Source of the DNA: Patescibacteria group bacterium
Lineage (GTDB): Bacteria > Patescibacteriota > Minisyncoccia > Phycocordibacterales > UBA9973
Assembly: GCA_040384365.1 (NCBI GenBank)
Contig: JAZKJK010000014.1
Location: 1-54,624 of the forward strand
DNA: 54,624 nt
Direction: 5' to 3'
A program made the translations under genes and the position numbers. A model generated the notes under the pieces. The model was not told the DNA's origin. It searched no databases and saw nothing but the letters and a program-made list of their open reading frames with translations. Within the stretch, counting starts at the first letter, position 1. The number at the start of each line of letters is the position of its first letter. This document shows, piece by piece, positions 6,671-34,868 of the stretch.

Positions 6671-7273
6671 ATGAAAAACAAAACATTAATTAGATTCGTA
6701 CAGTCATTTATTCTTTTGCCAGGTTTGGCAATGTCTAGTGCTCCGGTGGGGCCTGTATCACAAGCTGTGATAAACATGGTGAATAGCCCGTCTGTGTTTT
6801 TACAAAAACAAAATACGGAAGCTGTCGATCCAGCAGTCATAGCTATGCAATCTAAGGCAGATGCCATAGACAATTATTTCAAGGTGCGCAATATGCCCCT
6901 CGAAGGTATGGGTATGAAAATGGTTCTCGAAGCGGAGAAGAATGATCTCGATTGGAGACTTATAGCGGCGATATCCGTGCGAGAATCCACTGGTGGTAAA
7001 CATGAGTGTAAGAAAGTGGGCAATAATGCCTTCGGTTGGGGTTCTTGTAAAATTGGTTTTAGCTCCAATGAAGTAGCTATTGAGACTGTTGCCAGAAATT
7101 TAGGCGGTAACAATCCAAAGACTGCGCATCATTATGATGAAAAGACTACCATCCAAATTCTTCGGGCTTATAACCCGCCTTCAATCGTTCCGAGATATGC
7201 TGAACAAGTTATCTCTATCATGAATGCGATTGGCGCAGGGGATGTAACTCCGGTAACTCCTGTCACAACATAA
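6671..7273 (+). CDS. Secreted lysozyme-like/glucosaminidase-fold cell-wall hydrolase
   Basis: Signal peptide; LDWRLIAAISVRESTGG, NNAFGWG, YNPP and YAEQV resemble the lysozyme-superfamily core with a catalytic ES. Confidence 0.65.
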   Translation: MKNKTLIRFVQSFILLPGLAMSSAPVGPVSQAVINMVNSPSVFLQKQNTEAVDPAVIAMQSKADAIDNYFKVRNMPLEGMGMKMVLEAEKNDLDWRLIAAISVRESTGGKHECKKVGNNAFGWGSCKIGFSSNEVAIETVARNLGGNNPKTAHHYDEKTTIQILRAYNPPSIVPRYAEQVISIMNAIGAGDVTPVTPVTT

Positions 7274-7278
7274 AGCAC

Positions 7279-7312
7279 AATAAAAAATCCCCCATATGGG
7301 GGATTTTTTATT
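7279..7312. terminator. Bidirectional intrinsic terminator between convergent genes
   Basis: Perfect palindrome AATAAAAAATCCCCCATATGGGGGATTTTTTATT. Confidence 0.85.
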
Positions 7313-10009: not shown

Positions 10010-10258
10010 ATGCGAAAAATAATTCACAATTTGAGGAATCAGCCCGAGCAAGTCAAAATGCACATTTTGCATGTAGCGACCATTGTGGCTGGGATTATTT
10101 TGATCCTGCTCTGGATTTATTCTCTAGGAACAAATTTGAGTAATCCTAATACACAAGCAAAAGTAAGTAATGATTTAAAACCATTTTCCGTATTAAAAGA
10201 TAATATAATCAGTGGATATCAAAGTATTTCAGGGACGAATACGGATACAGAGCAATAA
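10010..10258 (+). CDS. Small single-TM hypothetical protein
   Basis: One hydrophobic helix; immediately upstream of gyrA. Confidence 0.7.
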   Translation: MRKIIHNLRNQPEQVKMHILHVATIVAGIILILLWIYSLGTNLSNPNTQAKVSNDLKPFSVLKDNIISGYQSISGTNTDTEQ

Positions 10259-10261
10259 TTT

Positions 10262-12736
10262 ATGGCCAAGAAAGATTTAGAAAAAAAAGATGGTGGCAAT
10301 GACAAGCCAATCAATATAGATAAAATTCTGCCGGTTGATGTCGTGACTGAAATGAAGGAGTCTTATTTGGCGTACGCTATGTCCGTCATCACTTCGCGTG
10401 CACTACCAGATGTGCGAGATGGATTGAAGCCCGTGCACAGGAGAATACTTTTTGCCATGCATGAAATGGGGCTCACCTCCTCGGCCCGTTTTCGAAAGTC
10501 AGCGGCAGTTGTCGGAGATGTACTTGGAAAATATCATCCACACGGAGATGTCGCGGTCTATGACTCGATGGTGGGTATGGCTCAGGAATTTTCTTACCGT
10601 TATCCATTTATTTTAGGCCAAGGTAACTTTGGTTCGATAGATGGAGACAATGCGGCGGCTATGCGTTACACCGAAGCCAAAATGTCCAAGATCTCCGGCG
10701 AGCTTTTGCGAGATTTAGAAAAAGAAACAGTGGATTTTCGTCCAAACTATGACCAGACTCGCAAGGAGCCGATAGTTTTTCCTGCCTCTGTGCCAGCATT
10801 ACTCTTGAACGGTACCCTCGGTATCGCCGTCGGTATGGCCACAAATATTCCGCCGCACAATCTCGCCGAAGTTTTAGATGCGACGACACATCTGATCGAA
10901 AATGAAGATGCGACGACTGAGGACTTGATGCAATTCATCAAAGGGCCGGACTTTCCGACTGGCGGCATAGCTTATGGATATAAAGATATGTTGCACGCGT
11001 ATTCAGGCGGCCGGGGTGGAGTCGTCTGTCGCGGTGAAGCGGAGATAGTGGAACAAAAAGATGGGAATTTCTCTATTATTATAACTTCAATTCCTTTTCG
11101 AGTTAACAAATCAAATTTGATAATGGCGATAGCTGAGCTCGTGCAAGAAAAAAAGCTTGAAGGCATCAAAGGACTACGCGATGAATCCACCAAGGACATC
11201 CGAATCGTGATTGATTTAAAATCTAGCGCGCATCCAGAAAAAGTTTTGAATTATATTTATAAAAATACTCAACTCGAATCGAATTTCAACTTTAACATCG
11301 TGGCCTTGGTAGATGGAGTGCCACAAACCCTTTCCCTCAAGTCAATTCTGGAGCAATTTGTTTTACACAGAAAGGAAATAGTAAAGAGAAGAAGCGCATA
11401 TGATCTACGCAGAGCTGAGGAACGCGAGCATATCTTGCTGGGCTTAAAAAAAGCGCTAGACAAGATAGATCGGGTGATCAGCGTCATTCGCGCTTCTAAA
11501 AATTCTCAAATCGCCAAGTTTAACTTGATGAAAGAATTCAAGTTTTCCGATCTGCAGGCTATGGCTATTCTCGAAATGAAGCTGTCTAAATTGGCCGGAC
11601 TTGAGAGGCAGGCCGTGGAAGACGAACTCAAGGAAAAGCAGAAATTTATCGCTGAGATGAAAGATTTGCTGGCTAGCCCGAAGAAAATTCTAAAAACTAT
11701 TGCTGGAGAATTAGCAGAAATACGTACAAAATATACAGATGAACGCCGTACTAAAATAGTGAAGGGGGGAGTCAAGGAAATTTCTGATGAAGATTTGGTG
11801 CCGGAGAAAGAAACCATGCTGGTACTCACTGCTGGCGGATATGTAAAATGCACCGATCCTTCGGAATATCGCGCTCAAAAGAGAGGCGGAGTCGGGGTGA
11901 TTGATTTAGAAACCAAAGAGGAAGATTTCGTTACCATGCTCGTTTCTGGTTCGACTCACAGCAACCTGCTTTTCTTCACCAACTTGGGCAAAGTTTATCA
12001 AATGAAAATGTACGATATCCCAGAAGCTCGCCGAGCTACCCGCGGTAAGTCGATTATGAATTTTCTATCTCTGTCGGCTGAAGAGAAGGTAAATTCTATT
12101 TTGGCAATGCCGAAAGATATAGATAAATCTCCAACTTCACTTATGCTCGTGACAAAGAATGGTACAGCCAAGAAAATGTCTTCCGAGAGCTTCAAAGATG
12201 TTCGCCGAAGTGGCATCATCGCTATTCGCTTGGATAAAGATGATCAACTCATCTCGGCTCTAGTAACGGAAAAAAATGATGAAGTCATGATTGCGACCGC
12301 CGAAGGTCAGTCTATCAGGTTCAAAGAGTCTGACATTAGAGAGATGGGCCGAACAGCTGGCGGTGTGCGTGGAATAAAATTGGGCAAAGATGATGCGGTC
12401 ATTGGTGTGGATGTAGTCAGGAAAAATGGTGAGAAGGGCGCTTTTTTGACCATGAGCGCGAATGGTTTCGGCAAGAAAACTGACTTAAAAGAATACAAAG
12501 TTCAAAATCGCGGTGGATCCGGCATCAAAACCGCTAAAGTTACTTCAAAGACAGGAAAATTAATTGTGGCCAAAGTTTTAACTGGCGAAGAAGCTGAGCT
12601 TATTGCCATGTCTAAAAAAGGACAAGTCATCCGCACCGCGCTCAAAGACATCTCATCTCTCGGGCGTCAGACTCAAGGCGTGACCATCATGCGCCTCCGT
12701 GGAGGTGACGGCATCGCCTCACTCGCTTGTATCTAA
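10262..12736 (+). CDS. gyrA: DNA gyrase subunit A
   Basis: [22 protein letters not shown], catalytic AAMRYTE, GyrA-box QKRGGVG and C-terminal pinwheel repeats. Confidence 0.98.
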
Positions 12737-12738
12737 AC

Positions 12739-13399
12739 ATGTCAAAGTGTCTCTTTGACATCATAAATTAGTGTTTGTTTTACAAAGTTTTTAACATCAC
12801 CGAAAGTTTCAAGTAAAAGCTCCTTATCTACTATCGGTAGATTTCTTTTTTCTGTATAGTCATTATAACTGCTCCATTTATATTCGCTTGGATCTTTTAC
12901 CAATTTATCTTTTACTGCATTCATATGAATATAAGATGATACCCACATCAACTGTGAGTTATTATCGATAAGTACAGCTTTGAAACAATCTTGAAAAGCA
13001 TGTCCTTCACGATTGTATTTATTGTTTATATATTTAGAATAACTTGAGCAGACTTTTGAGATTAGTTTTGAAATTGATGTATCGCTACATTGCTCGATTA
13101 GTAAATGAAAATGATTTGGCATAAGGCAGAAAGCATTGATTTTGAATTTATTTTTTCCTTCTGATTCAATCCTGATTCTAGAATAGGGCATACTCAATAA
13201 ATTTTCGTTTCTCAATTCTTTTTGATCAAACCCCAGAGCTAAAGCGAGTCTAAAAAGAAAAGCTTTATAATCTTGCTCGTCAAAAAATATTTTTCCTCTA
13301 TGATTACCTCTATTATAAATATGGGCAATTGAACCTCTATTAAATTTTTTGTAATCCCTATTATTCATCTATCCATTATGTCAAAGTGTCTCTTTGACA
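12739..13399 (-). mobile_element. RAYT/IS200-like unit bounded by two identical 22-nt hairpins in direct orientation
   Basis: ATGTCAAAGTGTCTCTTTGACA at 12739-12760 and 13378-13399 flanks the transposase gene. Confidence 0.75.
12742..13368 (-). CDS. REP-associated tyrosine transposase (RAYT, Y1 HUH family)
   Basis: HIYNRG, FCLMPNHFHLL (HUH), YIHMNAVK (catalytic Tyr region), YKWSSY. Confidence 0.9.
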   Translation of the reverse strand: MNNRDYKKFNRGSIAHIYNRGNHRGKIFFDEQDYKAFLFRLALALGFDQKELRNENLLSMPYSRIRIESEGKNKFKINAFCLMPNHFHLLIEQCSDTSISKLISKVCSSYSKYINNKYNREGHAFQDCFKAVLIDNNSQLMWVSSYIHMNAVKDKLVKDPSEYKWSSYNDYTEKRNLPIVDKELLLETFGDVKNFVKQTLIYDVKETL

Positions 13400-13459
13400 G
13401 CAAGGGTTTTTGTTAATAACTTCAATGCAAACTAGGTTTTTTAATACTATAATGTATAA

Positions 13460-15276: not shown

Positions 15277-16239
15277 TTGATGATCAAAAAAAGTAAAATT
15301 TTAATCTCTCTCTCAATATTTCTAATGCTTGCCACCTCTTCATTTTCCTTTGCGCAAGATGCAATAAGGATTGTCGCTGGTTCGGTGTCAGGAGATGGCC
15401 TTGATCTCCTCACTGTATATATTTCAAACAGTAATCCGAGAAGTTTGGAACTTGTCGCAAAATATGGCGAGGATTATAGTTTTGAGCTGACAAGTAACAC
15501 AATTTCTTTTAATGATGCGGGTCGTGGCACAGCTACACTATCCACTATCAGCAGATCTGGGGAAACTTTTCAATACCGACTCGTCGACAAGAAGGGAGTC
15601 TTGCTCCCAAGTGAAATATATTCATTTACTTCCGTTCCTGTTCCTAATTCTTCTGGTGGATATTCAGACTACAGATCTTATCCAGTTTCCAATACCTCAA
15701 CTAACCCAAATAGTCCTAGCTATACCACCTCCTCTACCCCCATTCCTAAGGATCCAAATACTTCGACTACCACTAGCAACTCCAATTCCACAACTACTTC
15801 TGCCAATCCCAATGCTGTTACTTTAGGAGGGAATTCACCATCTTTACCACCTAGTAGCGCATCTAGCTCTGCCTCTACTTCAAATTCAACTTCTAATAAC
15901 ACGAATGATGGTAAAGGCTTAGTTCCTTGTGACAATACGCCAGATGATAAGGGTGTCATAGCTAAACCTTGTGACTTTAATGCATTTATGAAACTCATAA
16001 ATACAGTCATTCATTTTGTGCTTTTTAGTTTAGCTATTCCCATTGCCGCCATCATGTTCTTCTATGCTGGTTTTCTGATGGTCACTTCTGGGGGTAGCGC
16101 CGAGGCTAAGAGTAAGGCGAAAAATATATTTTCTAATGCTGTCTATGGTCTCGTCATTGCCGCAGGCGCTTGGCTCATTATCAGGACTATACTATCCATA
16201 TTGGGCTATAACGGCTCTTGGATAGGTTTTACTATATAG
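15277..16239 (+). CDS. Pilin-domain protein (VirB2/TrbC-like C-terminus) with N-terminal domain and Ser/Thr/Asn/Pro linker
   Basis: Signal peptide, GLVPC...C pair, then TM-YAGFLMVTSGG..KSKAK..NAVYGL-TM. Confidence 0.75.
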   Translation: MMIKKSKILISLSIFLMLATSSFSFAQDAIRIVAGSVSGDGLDLLTVYISNSNPRSLELVAKYGEDYSFELTSNTISFNDAGRGTATLSTISRSGETFQYRLVDKKGVLLPSEIYSFTSVPVPNSSGGYSDYRSYPVSNTSTNPNSPSYTTSSTPIPKDPNTSTTTSNSNSTTTSANPNAVTLGGNSPSLPPSSASSSASTSNSTSNNTNDGKGLVPCDNTPDDKGVIAKPCDFNAFMKLINTVIHFVLFSLAIPIAAIMFFYAGFLMVTSGGSAEAKSKAKNIFSNAVYGLVIAAGAWLIIRTILSILGYNGSWIGFTI

Positions 16240-16253
16240 TGTATAATTAAAGA

Positions 16254-16619
16254 ATGAAATTTATTAAGAAAAATTGGTGCAAGTTAGTTTCATTATCTTA
16301 TATTTTTACGGCGAATATTTCTGTGGTTTACGCCGATGTTAGTGATTCTTGTCCTGTTGGTACGATTTGTAATCCAATAAAAGCTGCTAGCATCCAAGGT
16401 TTCATCAAAACTCTTTTAGAAGGTGTACTTAAAATAGGCATACCGGTGGTCGCACTCGCTATCATTTACTGCGGATTCCTATTCGTGGCGGCTCGGGGTA
16501 ACACGGAGAAATTAACCAAGGCCAAAGACGCCCTCCTGTATACTCTGATCGGTGCGGGGATACTTTTAGGGTCGTGGGCTATAGCCACTATGATATCAGC
16601 TACAGTGACTGCATTATAA
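16254..16619 (+). CDS. VirB2/TrbC-like pilin
   Basis: Signal peptide, C..CNP, IIYCGFLFVAARGNTEKLTKAKDALLYTLIG. Confidence 0.8.
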   Translation: MKFIKKNWCKLVSLSYIFTANISVVYADVSDSCPVGTICNPIKAASIQGFIKTLLEGVLKIGIPVVALAIIYCGFLFVAARGNTEKLTKAKDALLYTLIGAGILLGSWAIATMISATVTAL

Positions 16620-16632
16620 ATTAACTTAATTT

Positions 16633-16659
16633 ATGACCCTTCGACAAGCTCAGGGTCAT
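16633..16659. repeat. REP-like hairpin
   Basis: ATGACCCT-TCGACAAGCTC-AGGGTCAT; a related copy lies inside fmt (42703-42726). Confidence 0.7.
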
Positions 16660-16676
16660 GGTGATAAAATAGAACC

Positions 16677-17162
16677 ATGAAAATCAAAAAATACACAATA
16701 GATATTTTAATACTGACAATGCTTATAGGTATATTTGTCCCAATACTCGGAGTACGGGCATCCCCTCAAAATCCGAATGAACCATGTACTTATTTTAATT
16801 CGTTGAATCCAGACAATTCACCATGTCAGGCGGGCTCGCAGGATAGTGGAGATCAGGGTTCCCTCGTGTGCCGATTGGATCCAAATCCAAAACTGCAAAA
16901 TGTTTTAGTTTATGGTAGTTGTATTATCAATACTGCAGTCATTCCGCTCATTTTTGCTTTAGCCATAGCTATGTTTGTCTGGGGTGTCGTCCAGTATGTC
17001 ATAAATAGCGATGAAGAAGCCAAGAAGGAGAAAGGCAAGCAATTCATGATATGGGGGATAATAGCTCTGACTGTGATGGTCTCAGTCTGGGGGTTGGTGT
17101 CTATATTGGGTGGCACTTTTGGTATCAATACTCACTTTATTCCACAGGTGAAGGCGCCATAG
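16677..17162 (+). CDS. VirB2/TrbC-like pilin
   Basis: FVWGVVQYV...EEAKKEKGKQFMIWGIIALTVMVSVWGLV two-TM hairpin; Cys-rich N-terminal part. Confidence 0.8.
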   Translation: MKIKKYTIDILILTMLIGIFVPILGVRASPQNPNEPCTYFNSLNPDNSPCQAGSQDSGDQGSLVCRLDPNPKLQNVLVYGSCIINTAVIPLIFALAIAMFVWGVVQYVINSDEEAKKEKGKQFMIWGIIALTVMVSVWGLVSILGGTFGINTHFIPQVKAP

Positions 17163-17255
17163 TGTTGCTTTTGTTTTTATTGTGCTTGTAGTACAATAGG
17201 GGTATATTATTAAGTTTATTATTACAAGGTCGCGATTATTAGAAATATTTTTATT

Positions 17256-17645
17256 ATGAAAAAGAAATTAATTGTTTTGTCAGGTTTTGCTTTAGGTTTT
17301 GCTCCATTCGTAGCATTGGCGCAAGCTCAAACTGGTGGTACACCTAGAGTATGTAATGCAAGCACAATCACAGATATACAAAGTGTATTATGTAAAATTG
17401 CGGAGATTTTAAGCGCCATCCTTCCTGTTTTGGTTGCCTTAGGAGTAGTTTACTTTGTTTGGGGAGTTATCTCTTATGTTGTCGGGGGCGATGAAGAGGC
17501 AAAAAAGAAGGGAAGAGAAAAGATCATATATGGAATCATTGGATTGGCTGTTATCTTGAGCGTCTGGGGACTTGTGAGGATTTTAACAAACACCTTTGGG
17601 CTGACTAATCGACAACAGATTACTCTACCGACGGCACCTTATTAA
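17256..17645 (+). CDS. VirB2/TrbC-like pilin
   Basis: Signal peptide ending ALA; FVWGVISYV..DEEAKKKGREKIIYGIIGL...VWGLV. Confidence 0.8.
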   Translation: MKKKLIVLSGFALGFAPFVALAQAQTGGTPRVCNASTITDIQSVLCKIAEILSAILPVLVALGVVYFVWGVISYVVGGDEEAKKKGREKIIYGIIGLAVILSVWGLVRILTNTFGLTNRQQITLPTAPY

Positions 17646-17684
17646 GGCTGGTTATAAAGTAGAAAGTCAAATACAAATTAGAAC

Positions 17685-18020
17685 ATGAATTTTTTCTCTA
17701 CCAAAGTAGCCTTTGCGGCGAGTGCAAACCTAAATCAATTTATAGGAAATGTGGATAGGATGATCATAAACCCGCTCATCAGTCTACTCTTTGCTTTGGC
17801 GCTAGCCTATTTCCTTTACGGGATGTTTGAGTTCATCGCTAACGGGGCCAATGACGAGAAAAAAACAATTGGGAAAAGTCATATGTTGTGGGGTGTCGTC
17901 GGACTGACCATCATGATGGGAGTCTGGGCTATTCTTGGTGTTATTTTAAGCACATTTAATATACCAAAGGATCAAATAAATCCAGAACAGGGAACAGTCA
18001 CGCTACCTCCTAGTCCATAA
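17685..18020 (+). CDS. VirB2/TrbC-like pilin
   Basis: FLYGMFEFI...DEKKTIGKSHMLWGVVGLTIMMGVWAIL. Confidence 0.8.
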   Translation: MNFFSTKVAFAASANLNQFIGNVDRMIINPLISLLFALALAYFLYGMFEFIANGANDEKKTIGKSHMLWGVVGLTIMMGVWAILGVILSTFNIPKDQINPEQGTVTLPPSP

Positions 18021-20486: not shown

Positions 20487-20532
20487 GCACAAAAAAAGCC
20501 TTTTAAATATGGCTATTTTACCTGATTTTTTG

Positions 20533-20614
20533 TGGGCGAGGGGAGACTTGAACTCCCATGCCTTACGGCACTACTTCCTAAGAGTAGCGTGTCTACCAAT
20601 TTCACCACCCGCCC
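20533..20614 (-). tRNA. tRNA-Leu(TAG)
   Basis: Cloverleaf GGGCGGG...CTCGCCCA; anticodon arm CTACT-CT TAG GA-AGTAG; long variable arm; GTTCAA T-loop. Confidence 0.95.
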
Positions 20615-20625
20615 AATATTTATTT

Positions 20626-20647
20626 TGACTAGGTACTTACCTAGTCA
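20626..20647. repeat. 22-nt perfect hairpin between tRNA genes
   Basis: TGACTAGGTA-CT-TACCTAGTCA. Confidence 0.6.
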
Positions 20648-20650
20648 GTG

Positions 20651-20723
20651 TGCGTCCAGAAGGGATCGAACCTTCGACCTTATCCTTAAGAGGGATCTGC
20701 TCTACCAGCTGAGCTATGGACGC
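20651..20723 (-). tRNA. tRNA-Lys(CTT)
   Basis: GCGTCCA TAGCTCAGCTGGTAGAGC; anticodon loop CT CTT AA; GGTTCGATCCC TGGACGCA. Confidence 0.95.
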
Positions 20724-20750
20724 AAATAAATTTTTCATTCAGTTATATTT

Positions 20751-20835
20751 TGGTGCCCGGAGTGGGAGTCGAACCCACATCCCTTACGGGACACCATTTT
20801 AAGTGGTGCGCGTATACCAATTCCGCCATCCGGGC
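20751..20835 (-). tRNA. tRNA-Leu(TAA), CCA encoded
   Basis: GCCCGGA...; anticodon arm CACCA-CT TAA AA-TGGTG; variable arm; ends CCGGGCACCA. Confidence 0.95.
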
Positions 20836-20872: not shown

Positions 20873-21355
20873 TCATTTTTTCCTATCTTTTCTATTTCTA
20901 CCTCTATGCGTGATTTGTAGACTGTGACAATTTGGGCATAGAACTCTAAGATTTTCTAACCTATTATCATGTCTGTCTCCATTTATATGATCTAGTTCCA
21001 ATGGAACTCTACCATCAACAGACATTTTTGCCCAGCCACACTCCTCACACTTGGGTTCCTTCAGTTTAACTAAAAAAAGTCTTTTTTTCAACTTAAAACT
21101 TTGGTAATCACTATTTTTAACTAAAATATCTTTTAAGGCTATCACGGGCTTAAAAGGAAGTCTCAATCCCTTATTCCACAACATTCCCGTAAAGTGTTCT
21201 GTAGATAGGTTATATTCTCTGATATATTTTTTTACTTGTTCATAATTTCCTCCTGCAGGTATTAACCCTAAAATTTTTATTACATTTCTATAACTTTTAG
21301 AATCTTTAACCGCATTTTTTAATTGTATTTCCGACCAACTTCTTTTTTTAGGCAT
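20873..21355 (-). CDS. HNH endonuclease inside a tRNA cluster
   Basis: CEEC...LELDHINGDRHDNRLENLRVLCPNCHS; N-terminal helical putative DNA-binding region. Confidence 0.9.
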   Translation of the reverse strand: MPKKRSWSEIQLKNAVKDSKSYRNVIKILGLIPAGGNYEQVKKYIREYNLSTEHFTGMLWNKGLRLPFKPVIALKDILVKNSDYQSFKLKKRLFLVKLKEPKCEECGWAKMSVDGRVPLELDHINGDRHDNRLENLRVLCPNCHSLQITHRGRNRKDRKK

Positions 21356-21413
21356 AGATTTAAAAGGTATACGGATATTATACTATAGTATGCTTTGTAT
21401 ACCTAAAATAGAG

Positions 21414-21485
21414 AGGCCTGGGGCGGAATTGAACCGCCGTATATTCCTTTTGCAGAGGAATGCCTTACCACTTGGCTACCAGGCC
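21414..21485 (-). tRNA. tRNA-Cys(GCA)
   Basis: GGCCTGG...CCAGGCC-U discriminator; anticodon arm TTCCT-CT GCA AA-AGGAA. Confidence 0.95.
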
Positions 21486-21854: not shown

Positions 21855-23375
21855 TTACTTTTGGGCTATGGAAAATGACTCTAATACATCGCCTGCGGCA
21901 ACTTCTATTTTTGATTCGATCATCATACCGAATTCGGAGCCTTCGAGAACCTCGCTGGTTTTCACCTTACTTTTTTCTAGATTTACAATTTTCCCGCGCC
22001 CTATTTCAAATTCTCGGCGCATTATTTTTACTGTTCCATTTAGGAGCATCCGTCCCTCGATGACTTTTCCGCCTATGATCTGGCGTTCCTTGGTGCGGCT
22101 GAAAGCTCTGATGATCTTTGCGCGGCCTGTCGTCTCGACAGTCTCGACTCTCGGTCTTCTCGATTCCATTTGGACTTCCAACCACTCGGTCATCTTGTAA
22201 ATAATATCAAAGAAAGAAATTGTTATGCCTCTCTTGTCTGCGACTTCGAGTGCGGTCTTGTCGGCTTTGACATTGAATCCGATGATGATAGCTTCTTTGC
22301 CATCCGATATATTCTTCATATCAGATTCAGAAATCGCTCCGACGCCCTTGCTGATGATTTTAAATTCTGCGCCACCATTCTTGATTTTGGCTATTTCTTT
22401 TTCGATAGCTTCGAGCGAGCCGGATACGTCGGCCTTGATCAATATTGGGATTATTTTTTTACTTGTTTCTTCTTTGGGCCCCAAAGGACGGTCCTTAAGA
22501 GAGTTTCCCAAAGGACCGTCCTTGAAAGATTGCGCGTATGCTTGAGCATCCTTTTTATTTTTGAAACTTTGAAACATTGCACCAACGGCTGGCATTTTAT
22601 CAAAACCACAAAGGCGTACTGGTGAAGATGGTGAGGCAGTGTCTATCATCTCTCCTTTAAAATTTTGTATCATGCGAGTAGAGGTAATGGCGTTTTCCAC
22701 CACCACAAACATTCCTTTGCTGAGAGTCCCGTTTTTAATGATTAGGGTTGCCTGGATGCCGCGTTTGGAATCCAGGTCGGCTTCGATGATGAAGCCAGAA
22801 GCATCCTCGCCATTGTTTTCGGTAAAATTTTCCATTTCGGCCAGAATCAAGATAAGTGACAGCAGGCCATCTACGCCCGCGCCGGTTTTGGCGGAAATTT
22901 CTGCGCCTGGAGTTTTGCCTCCGTAATTTTCCAAGTAAATTTCATTTTCGGCTAACTCTTGTTTTGTTTTTTCAATATTGGCGCTCGGTTTATCTATTTT
23001 ATTTATGGCGACAATCGCAGGCAGTTTCATCTCGGTAATTGTTTTCCAGGCTTCGATGGTTTGTGGCTTTACTCCATCTTCCGCTGAGACTACTAGGATG
23101 GCAATGTCAGCAATGATGGCCCCGCGTTCACGCATTTTAGAGAAAGCTTCATGTCCCGGCGTATCCAGAAAAGTTATTTTCCTGTCTTTACCTTCTTCGT
23201 CTTTGTGCAAGACTTCATATGCAGAAATATTTTGAGTTATGCCTCCGGCTTCACCTTCGGTGACGTTTGTCTTACGGATGTAATCGAGCAGGGTGGATTT
23301 ACCATGGTCAATATGGCCCATGACGACCACCACCGGAGATCTCGCTATTATTTTTTTATTTTCATTTTCTTTCAT
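21855..23375 (-). CDS. infB: Translation initiation factor IF-2 (no N-terminal domain)
   Basis: [51 protein letters not shown]. Confidence 0.95.
22480..22523. repeat. REP-like palindrome doublet in frame within infB
   Basis: CCCAAAGGACGGTCCTT (22480-22496) and CCCAAAGGACCGTCCTT (22507-22523), 27-nt period. Confidence 0.7.
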
Positions 23376-23854: not shown

Positions 23855-25081
23855 ATGCCGAAATCAATTAGGAAAATAAAGGAAATATACCTAGATTATG
23901 CCTCTGCCGCGCTCGCGACTGCTAGCAATCCGGGAGCAATTCATGCGCTCGGCATGAGAGAAAAAGCTAAGTTGGAAAATGCGCGGGCGAGTGTCGCCAA
24001 AAGTCTAAATGCACACAAGAATGAAATTATTTTTACTTCTGGCGCTACTGAGAGTAACAATTTGGCTATTTTAGGTTTTATCCATGCGGAACAGGAGAAA
24101 GGTTTTCTCAGGTCCTCGGAACTCCCTAGTCCCTCTTTCCCGGCCAGACCATTCAAAAACCTTTCTCCTGTTCCGCATATAGTTACAACGAATATCGAAC
24201 ATGCGTCTGTCCTAGAAGTTTGCAAACATCTAGAAAAAACCAAACAAGCCGAAGTCACTTATGTGGAAGTCGAAGCCAGTGGAGTCATCGACGCCAAGAA
24301 AATAAAAAAAGCGTTGAGAGAAAATACTGTTTTGGTTTCGGTGATGTATGCCAATAATGAGATTGGAACTATCCAGCCAATCAGAGAGATTGCTAAAGAA
24401 ATCAGACACTTTCGCAAGCAAAAGGAAAAGCAGAAAGGTTTTCCTTTTTTTCACACTGATGCGGTGCAAGCCGTGAATTATTTGCCTATAAATATGGCGG
24501 AGCTCGGAGTTGACCTCATGTCTATAAATAGCGCTAAAATTTATGGACCAAAGGGGGTCGGCGCGTTGTATGTGAAAAAAAATACACCCATGAGTCCGAT
24601 TATGTTTGGTGGCAATCAGGAATTTGGTTTACGACCCGGCACCGAAAATGTTGCTCTGGCTGTCGGACTCGCGAAGGCGTTACAAACTACTGAACTAATA
24701 AAAAAGAGGGAAGTGGAACGTTTGACCAAACTGCGAGATTGCATGATAGCGAAACTAAAAAATAATTATTTTGATTTTTTGATCAATGGTGATTTGAAAA
24801 ATAGATTGCCGAATAACATCAACATAACTATCCCAAATATTCCGAGCGATCTTTTAGTGATTGAGCTATCCGCGCGAGGAATAATGGTCTCAGCTAAAAG
24901 TGCTTGCAAATCTGGAGACGGCAAGGCTTCGCATGTGATTCAAGCAATAGATAAAAATATAAAAGAAACCGATGGTTCGCTGCGCTTTTCCTTGGGCAGG
25001 GGCACAACCAAAAAAGATATAGATTACAGCGTCAAAGCTCTGTCTGAGATTTTAACCAAATTAAAAAAGTGGTACAAATAA
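23855..25081 (+). CDS. iscS: Cysteine desulfurase (IscS/NifS group I)
   Basis: IYLDYA, FTSGATESNN, IEHASV, ANNEIGTIQP, HTDAVQA, PLP-Lys in SAKIYGPKG, catalytic Cys in SAKSAC. Confidence 0.9.
   Translation: MPKSIRKIKEIYLDYASAALATASNPGAIHALGMREKAKLENARASVAKSLNAHKNEIIFTSGATESNNLAILGFIHAEQEKGFLRSSELPSPSFPARPFKNLSPVPHIVTTNIEHASVLEVCKHLEKTKQAEVTYVEVEASGVIDAKKIKKALRENTVLVSVMYANNEIGTIQPIREIAKEIRHFRKQKEKQKGFPFFHTDAVQAVNYLPINMAELGVDLMSINSAKIYGPKGVGALYVKKNTPMSPIMFGGNQEFGLRPGTENVALAVGLAKALQTTELIKKREVERLTKLRDCMIAKLKNNYFDFLINGDLKNRLPNNINITIPNIPSDLLVIELSARGIMVSAKSACKSGDGKASHVIQAIDKNIKETDGSLRFSLGRGTTKKDIDYSVKALSEILTKLKKWYK
24084..24178. repeat. 95-bp palindromic element translated in frame within the cysteine desulfurase gene
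   Basis: Perfect 23-bp inverted repeat ATGCGGAACAGGAGAAAGGTTTT (24084-24106) / AAAACCTTTCTCCTGTTCCGCAT (24156-24178). Confidence 0.85.
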
Positions 25082-34511: not shown

Positions 34512-34531
34512 CCCTTATTCGTGCGAATAAG
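34512..34531. promoter_or_regulatory. Palindrome upstream of arsR-like gene (operator or cassette end), copy 1
   Basis: CCCTTATTCG-TG-CGAATAAG, just upstream of the -10 box TAGAAT. Confidence 0.6.
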
Positions 34532-34842: not shown

Positions 34843-34868
34843 ATCCCTAATTCGTGCGAATAAGGGAT
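34843..34868. promoter_or_regulatory. 12-2-12 palindrome downstream of arsR-like gene, copy 2
   Basis: ATCCCTAATTCG-TG-CGAATAAGGGAT; 19/20 identical to copy 1. Confidence 0.6.

Follow-up and report, generated by a model that had tools for sequence, protein, structure and literature searches.

A probable mobile hairpin element read in frame within a cysteine desulfurase gene of a Patescibacteria group bacterium

Palindromic elements that lie inside coding sequences are textbook oddities of Rickettsia, and the systems made of REPINs (hairpins formed by two repetitive extragenic palindromic, or REP, sequences) and RAYTs (REP-associated tyrosine transposases) are described as extragenic and have been best studied in proteobacteria. 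Rickettsia palindromic elements (RPEs) are reported to insert in frame (PMC10969869), and REPINs are presented as hairpin-forming REP doublets that are thought to be mobilised by RAYTs (PMC3337134). Here, we analysed a stretch of 54,624 nucleotides from a Patescibacteria group bacterium, a member of the Candidate Phyla Radiation (CPR) (contig JAZKJK010000014.1 of assembly GCA_040384365.1; the whole stretch is called the window below), in which a 95-bp palindrome lies within the gene of a NifS/IscS-type cysteine desulfurase. The palindrome is probably a small non-autonomous mobile hairpin element, similar to RPEs and REPINs, which occupies codons of a loop of the enzyme and is read through in frame. 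Among open-access papers and preprints, none that we found describes elements of this type from CPR bacteria; an earlier description elsewhere is possible.

The host gene (positions 23855 to 25081, forward strand) encodes 408 residues in an intact open reading frame (ORF), with no stop codon across the hairpin. Solved cysteine desulfurases in the PDB match the protein at values down to 1.4e-72. The class-V aminotransferase domain of Pfam (PF00266, 1.1e-61) is broken by the insert into two stretches, and among the NCBIfam profiles NifS scores best (361 bits), with all NifS/IscS matches lying under their equivalog cut-offs. The hairpin consists of a left arm (24084 to 24106; 23 nt, ATGCGGAACAGGAGAAAGGTTTT) that encodes (H)AEQEKGF and prolongs a native helix, a core (24107 to 24155; 49 nt) that carries the conserved blocks CTCAGGTCCTCGG and CCGGCCAGACCATTCA and encodes LRSSELPSPSFPARPF, and a right arm (24156 to 24178; 23 nt, AAAACCTTTCTCCTGTTCCGCAT) that encodes KNLSPVPH, all on the forward strand. 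The two arms, which are not palindromic in themselves, are 100% complementary over their 23 nt on either side of the 49-nt spacer, so that the whole hairpin measures 95 bp. In the RNA fold, the core blocks pair as an inner stem that is capped by a variable apical loop. The resulting peptide, HAEQEKGFLRSSELPSPSFPARPFKNLSPVPH, is sandwiched between ...NNLAILGFI and IVTTNIEH. The final 6 nt of the right arm, CCGCAT, encode the nearly invariant Pro-His pair that stands just before the IVTT strand (P107 is nearly invariant and H108 is invariant in the orthologue alignment). An earlier inspection of the DNA without database searches (the sequence-only reading) had reported a perfect 23-bp inverted repeat in frame in this gene, and both the arms and the ORF are as it described them; it had placed the insert in the right loop, with flanking residues that were off by two, a trivial discrepancy.

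The repeat had also been judged very unlikely to arise by chance, and the statistics agree. In the window, the arm matches itself and its partner and nothing else, and none of 100 dinucleotide shuffles of the window contains two arm matches (with at most 3 mismatches). The RNA fold of the hairpin has an energy of -48.3 kcal/mol (z = -7.7), which is equalled by none of 200 shuffles. Among the close inverted repeats of the window this one is the longest, and its spacer sequence is unique there; a search of a phage collection with blastn (distant setting) gave no match to the element. A chance origin of the 23-bp repeat is excluded.

The loop that carries the element is normally short, as the sequence-only reading had supposed. 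Its most frequent form among orthologues is LGLV-QNFKK-PH, and residues 84-106 of the query are surplus relative to the best solved structure (9wep_A); the insert lengthens the loop by about 25 residues. We modelled the desulfurase with AlphaFold2 using 50 orthologues as input (mean predicted local distance difference test score, pLDDT, of 80.8). The model shows a helix at residues 64-86 that ends with the left arm, a loop at residues 85-103 with pLDDT below 50, and then a strand at residues 108-112. Judging from the conservation of the frame, the segment is probably translated as a disordered surface loop of about 25 residues. An in-frame insertion, an added peptide and an intact gene, the traits of an RPE-type insertion, are all found here, and a length of 95 bp with a 23-bp stem agrees in size and fold with RPE-type hairpin repeats of about 100-150 bp.

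We then compared the 120 best protein relatives (61-74% identical, 368-478 aa), which, where named, come from Nomurabacteria, Paceibacterota or Minisyncoccia. Inserts occur at four sites. Site A, after query residue ~79, holds the element of the window; it has at least 6 extra residues in 38 of the 120 proteins and is empty or nearly so (fewer than 6) in the other 82. Site B, after residues ~192-194, comprises two adjoining column runs with inserts in 38 and 32 of the 120, while inserts are found in 21 proteins at site C (after ~305) and in 12 at site D (after ~370). The insert peptides form recurring families, and one family can be seen at different sites in different orthologues. The peptide type of the window, F[FL]RSS...ARPFKN, is carried by P0003, P0005, P0008 and P0120 at site A and by P0009 and P0016 at site B. 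When read from the reverse complement it becomes VFEWSG...RGPEKT, which corresponds to a minus-strand ORF of the window and is present at site B in P0017, P0042, P0064, P0084, P0087 and P0101. To count this family, hereafter family 1, we compared the six-frame translations of its four DNA copies (see below) with all inserts. It is present in 17 of the 120 proteins: 5 times at site A, 11 times at site B (6 reverse, and 5 forward in two frames) and once at site C. Frame-shifting copies in P0002, P0009 (site A) and P0010 look family-like by eye and lie under the census threshold. The same core is found at three loop sites, in both orientations and in at least three reading frames, and the frame is never broken.

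The DNA data set comprises 80 loci (L001 onwards) from one genome scan, which did not include the window's own genome, and amounts to 1.23 Mb with the window. The desulfurase gene is uninterrupted in all 80 loci (a single tblastn match each). Four DNA copies of family 1 can be recognised: those of the window and of L005 at site A (both forward), and those of L006 (forward) and L009 (reverse) at site B. Matches to the full regular expression in L050, L070 and L071 were rejected as chance matches with mismatches. The family-1 consensus, TTTT-CTCAGGTCCTCGG-(variable apex of 17-40 nt)-C(C)GGCCAGACCATTCA-AAAA, is kept nearly letter for letter in the four copies, which also have in common the inner section of the left arm (AAAGGTTTT), retain a stem of 23-27 bp and score 88-112 bits with a covariance model of the family. 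Their host genes are 62-72% identical in DNA and about 39-47% identical at third codon positions. Given that frame and orientation vary between the copies, it is the nucleotide sequence that is conserved and not the protein.

The copy of L005 is informative on how the arms evolve. Its host gene shares 77% of amino acids, 72% of nucleotides and 47.5% of third codon positions with that of the window, and a homologous element, identical at 79 of 95 positions, sits at the same codon site. The two stems differ at three positions that are changed on both arms, and one further G:C pair has become G:T. Since the stem changes are paired on both arms, perfect arms say little about age, and the proposal that the insertion is probably recent, made from its mismatch-free arms, is not supported. 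The pairing may have been kept up ever since the lineages of the window and L005 diverged, or else the same codon was hit by two related elements. Strong folding at site A is associated with the insert (L005, z = -7.7; L012, z = -10.4; L011, z = -7.8), and insert-free loci have no structure there. The case that the sequence-only reading had named against itself, orthologues with the same loop and no inverted repeat, is the reverse of what we observe: loop carriers have a hairpin and loop-free genes lack structure. At site A of L012, L011, L004 and L029, the strong hairpins are quite different in sequence from family 1.

Related families of hairpins occur in other genes and loci. The window has a palindromic doublet, AAGGACGGTCCTT + AAGGACCGTCCTT (22484 to 22523, reverse strand), that lies in frame in the IF-2 linker of the infB ORF (21855-23375). 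Its palindrome, AAGGACSGTCCTT, has two matches, a number that none of 100 shuffles reaches, and the doublet folds at -27.1 kcal/mol (z = -3.2). A different palindromic doublet stands at the same linker position, also in frame, in infB of L005 (8578-8622). Doublets of one family, AAGGTCSGACCTT, are found in L004 and L011; those of another, AAGGACNGTCCTT, in the desulfurase gene of L017 and in infB of the window; and those of a third, GGGAGCYSRGCTCCC, in L012 and in infB of L005. The desulfurase gene of L011 (335-1831) holds at least four copies of the AAGGTCSGACCTT-type doublet (at 445, 713, 1024 and 1518). In L004, an element of a sister family occurs twice, at site A (10240-10345) and 3 kb away in a stretch with no covering ORF (7112-7231). 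The two copies have an identical block of 46 nt and related arms, and their outer arms and inner mini-stem differ between the copies yet are paired within each. Going by these sequences, the L004 pair is the clearest sign that elements may move within a genome and that their arms may change in concert. The likeness to RPEs that had been suggested from the window alone is borne out by the peptide added to the loop and by relatives that differ in site, orientation and frame and that also lie in further genes; the homologues in Nomurabacteria, Paceibacterota and Minisyncoccia likewise uphold the idea of an inserted palindromic element that is read in frame in a CPR genome.

Two further observations concern hairpins outside genes. 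A hairpin of L017 (9366-9448), which has no covering ORF, starts with GTAG and scores 38.9 bits with the family-1 covariance model; a paper on tagged REPs has GTAG in its title as the tag (PMC3733652). In the window, a pair of palindrome-containing 20-mers (CCCTTATTCGTGCGAATAAG and CTAATTCGTGCGAATAAGGG, at 34512-34531 and 34847-34866, 315 nt apart) lies in the gap that separates the SelR (msrB) ORF from the following one, and is possibly another REP-like pair.

The inserts turn over even within tight groups of orthologues. Given the weak support of the whole tree, gains and losses were read only from well-supported small clades. The clade of P0006, P0020 and P0035 (support 99, branches of 0.02-0.04) has three distinct states of site A; the sole difference between P0021 and P0054 (support 100) is a missing element centre; and gains at two sites separate P0048 from P0049. 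Site B of P0035 is that of P0087 without the centre. The gene of the window has itself an arms-only stub at site B (24415 to 24452, forward strand; RKQKEKQKGFPFF), with a small hairpin (AAAAGGAAAA/TTTTCCTTTT) and no core. Its positions 24424-24443 are identical to the left arm of site A at 18 of 20 nucleotides, and L006 holds a full element at the place of the stub, which looks like the deletion remnant of a second copy.

Allowing one indel, the arms of sites A and B share AACAGGA...AAAGRTTTT when read from the sequences. An early idea, in which the outer arms derive from the host and only the core moves, was weakened by this similarity, by that of the site B stub of the window to its site A arm and by the related arms of the two L004 copies. 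Both orientations of the core occur within similar site B arms, which fits an inversion of the spacer between inverted repeats. Template switching is described as homogenising the arms of inverted repeats and inverting their spacers in coding DNA (PMC8604942), and an expansion of inverted-repeat arms by the same process has been reported (PMC13100816). The stem at site A stops exactly at the Pro-His codons, presumably because a longer one would overwrite constrained residues.

A candidate for the machinery of movement is encoded in the window. The Pfam scan of its 59 ORFs turned up a RAYT-like Y1 (HUH) transposase gene (12745 to 13368, reverse strand; 208 aa; Y1_Tnp, 6.8e-13; HFH and YIHMN motifs) at a distance of 10.7 kb from the element. 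A REP hairpin, ATGTCAAAG-AGACA-CTTTGACAT, lies at its 3' flank (12739 to 12761, reverse strand), and a second copy with 1 mismatch lies at its 5' flank (13378 to 13400, reverse strand). Elsewhere in the data set, exact TGTCAARG-N5-CYTTGACA hairpins are found only in desulfurase genes, in frame (at site C of L002, L004 and L012, and in L021). In L021 (4910-4982), two inverted copies of the hairpin ATGTCAAGG-N5-CCTTGACAT surround the conserved FHTDA motif, and one arm overlies coding sequence that is normally conserved. Directly downstream of the desulfurase gene of L011 lies a second RAYT-like gene (2135-2560), whose flanking hairpin is another one, AACCCTGCAAGT.... The occurrence of a RAYT-like gene with REP hairpins in a CPR genome is noteworthy in its own right, such systems having been described mostly in proteobacteria.

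These elements suggest how the hairpin may arise and persist. An element would insert at a loop-coding position, where the added peptide would be tolerated between the helix and the strand with the conserved His. Its arms would then stay paired by concerted change, either through template-switch homogenisation or through selection for a single-stranded hairpin, and the same concerted process could flip the core and extend the stem up to the essential Pro-His codons. Because the pairing of the arms is conserved, and not their sequence, the substrate is more readily seen as a single-stranded hairpin than as terminal repeats recognised in double-stranded DNA. Movement in this form might be mediated by a RAYT-type Y1/HUH transposase, for example the one of the window, and a single-strand hairpin mechanism of the RAYT type is plausible for the element. 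Decay by slipped deletion would leave stubs of arms.

Several results weigh against a mobile element of this kind. The confirmed copies of family 1 (4 in DNA and 17 in proteins) are all in the same gene: the window (54.6 kb) holds no other copy, and searches of the 1.23 Mb of loci by regular expression, blastn and tblastn gave none outside the desulfurase gene. The sole family-1 match in another gene is an in-frame hairpin in tsaD of L002, for which the covariance match is weak (25.7 bits, E = 0.007). When 1.84 billion representative proteins were searched with a profile, three matched at E <= 0.001, one of them real (P0122, another desulfurase), with a profile of only 30 positions that makes this near-empty result weak as a negative. 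The sequence-only reading had looked to orthologues to define the insertion and any target duplication; their alignment located the former, and none of the latter was found. The flanks, ...TTTTATCC and ATAGTTAC..., have no direct repeat, and no exact ends of the element could be set. Set against L001 and L002, whose sites are empty, the surplus DNA is symmetrical around the core and does not form a single block with a duplication, and excising candidate units of 87 or 93 nt gives back no plausible ancestral loop. The tree of orthologues (FastTree) is weakly resolved, with 47 of its 116 inner branches open, and for this reason cannot separate one insertion shared by the window and L005 from two. 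The transposase, whose best NCBIfam match is REP_Tyr_transpos (E = 6.3e-19), scores 68.3 bits against a cut-off of 80, and the REP that flanks it is unrelated in sequence to the desulfurase element; its link to the element is circumstantial for these two reasons. The association of a RAYT with flanking cognate REPs that is typical of REPINs does not extend to the element in the window, although a cognate RAYT may lie elsewhere in the genome.

Among the other candidates of the protein searches, P0121 and P0123 were rejected as carriers of the element because they are low-complexity repeats. A word-index search with the 43-aa reverse-frame peptide gave one candidate and scored none; it also missed known positives such as P0084, and the method is unsuited to this purpose.

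The restriction of family 1 to one gene admits other readings. It is possible, if rather doubtful, that a guild of hairpin elements targets the desulfurase gene specifically, with its four loop sites repeatedly re-invaded, flipped and emptied and with cores landing in or replacing resident hairpins, or that the host varies its loops by this turnover; in that case family 1 would replicate bound to this gene and would not be a genome-wide repeat. A quite unlikely explanation is that the hairpin is a selected cis-acting RNA or DNA structure of the desulfurase gene, serving processing, pausing or regulation, and not selfish DNA. A count of inverted repeats that lie within ORFs of 250 aa or more (stems of 18 or longer with no more than 1 mismatch and an arm G+C from 0.3 upwards) can be read in its favour: L001-L030 and the window have 11 such hairpins in 40 kb of desulfurase ORFs and a single one in the 288 kb of the remaining large ORFs, a 79-fold difference (binomial p = 1e-9), and the 81 sources together have 11 in desulfurase genes and 3 elsewhere (26-fold), under a filter that excludes imperfect copies such as those of L006, L009 and tsaD of L002. 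Core nucleotides conserved far above the synonymous sites of the host, stem pairing that survives through double changes, and the lack of another host family for family 1 in the representative search would fit such a structure as well. However, the site A insert is missing in 82 of the 120 orthologues; site, orientation and family vary even inside tight clades; unrelated hairpins occupy the same sites; and sister families are found in the genes infB and tsaD as well as in a stretch free of ORFs. Furthermore, Rfam gave only sub-threshold matches to generic miRNA hairpins (20.8 and 18.3 bits, for gathering scores of 73 and 78), and a scan for terminators returned nothing at the element, which has no terminator-like tail.

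We regard as less probable still a purely local inverted duplication of host sequence by replication template switching, with no mobile element involved. The 49-nt core is no copy of the neighbouring host sequence, near-identical cores turn up, at different sites and also inverted, in host genes that are 60-66% identical in amino acids, and the element of L004 is present at two loci. Such an origin would nonetheless account for the outermost stem, where ATGCGG is paired to CCGCAT, the native codons for Pro-His, and for the arms of L021, which bracket the native FHTDA motif; the homogenisation and lengthening of arms are documented processes (PMC8604942; PMC13100816). The arms are probably shaped by template switching, which nevertheless cannot be the source of the core that the copies share. 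A stable hairpin whose position in a conserved enzyme is so precise might also be taken for a segment that is lost or passed over on the way to the mature protein, be it a small intron, an intein-like element or a translational bypass. Bypass and intron elements of organelles and phages may look like this in-gene hairpin. We find this very improbable: all copies are in frame and free of stop codons, and the core is open in 4 of 6 frames in the window and in 5 of 6 in both L005 and L009, which selection for read-through predicts and excision would make needless. Moreover, 95 nt is far below the size of a self-splicing intron or an intein, Rfam shows no family at its gathering score or at E <= 1 other than generic hairpins, and the 23-bp helix is perfect, with no bulge-helix-bulge. 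Finally, amplified metagenome DNA can yield perfect inverted repeats, and the sequence-only reading had itself allowed for an assembly artefact. The chance of such a fold-back chimera is negligible, given homologous elements in independent assemblies (L005, L006 and L009) and in 17 of the 120 proteins, from several sources and with the frame kept. We thus retain a small mobile hairpin element, tolerated in frame, as the best explanation of the palindrome.

The window has other features that stand apart from the element. Five successive ORFs with T4SS_pilin or TrbC-like domains (15277-18017, forward strand) make up a tandem pilin-like family. An ORF of 160 aa with an HNH motif (20876-21355, reverse strand; Pfam HNH_3, 9.4e-07; weak NCBIfam matches to ZorE and IscB) lies within a tRNA cluster, with tRNA genes on both sides (20532-20835 and 21413-21485). 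A perfect palindrome of 17+17 nt without spacer (7279-7312; AATAAAAAATCCCCCAT/ATGGGGGATTTTTTATT) separates two convergent ORFs and is probably a bidirectional terminator.

If a mobile hairpin element is indeed at work, a small and gene-dense CPR genome would harbour hairpins of RPE- or REPIN-like build inside essential genes, in frame throughout. This would explain a part of the length variation among CPR orthologues (368-478 aa for this enzyme) and would provide a natural system in which to study the concerted upkeep of stems, the flipping of cores and the decay to stubs. Should the gene also be a specific target, the loops of an essential enzyme might serve as a long-lived "nursery" for REPIN-like replicators where intergenic space is almost nil. 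For annotation, such inserts split Pfam matches, and perfect arms are no licence to call an insertion recent.

Compared with known systems, the element fails strict membership of the RPEs, of the REPINs and of the MITEs (miniature transposable elements with inverted repeats). With bacterial MITEs it shares terminal inverted repeats, the lack of coding capacity and the in-frame fusions that occasionally arise from them, as PMC10969869 describes. It differs from MITEs by the pairing of the arms being conserved instead of their sequence, and no target-site duplication was found. The known translated perfect inverted repeats of functional genes resemble it in keeping a strict secondary structure together with the function of the protein; there, both arms encode conserved protein and are not mobile, whereas here they belong to an added loop that most orthologues lack.

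The likeness to RPEs extends to small hairpin repeats inserted in frame in housekeeping genes, which add a peptide and keep the protein, to the existence of several families and to a reduced, gene-dense genome, following the account of RPEs in PMC10969869, which sums up Ogata et al. (2000 and 2002). The same account has RPEs spread over many unrelated genes, whereas here a few fixed loop sites of one gene show fast turnover. The host phylum also differs, being CPR/Paceibacteria, and the likeness is one of functional analogy only. A single element is here read in several frames and in both orientations, with arms kept paired through double changes. Furthermore, we know of no transposase for RPEs, whereas the window has a RAYT-like transposase with its own REPs. 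As for REPINs, they are portrayed as predominantly extragenic (PMC3337134), in contrast to an intragenic element in frame, and the arms described here are not REP palindromes, the REP next to the RAYT being a different sequence. What the element has in common with them is its size (95 bp, for a near-perfect hairpin of 89 bp in Pseudomonas fluorescens SBW25), the conserved blocks that enclose an apical spacer which varies but keeps its fold, and a single RAYT-like gene flanked by REP hairpins in the genome, all with reference to PMC3337134. The sister families of L011, L017, L012, L005 and infB of the window come closer to REPINs in one further respect, as they are true doublets of short palindromes.

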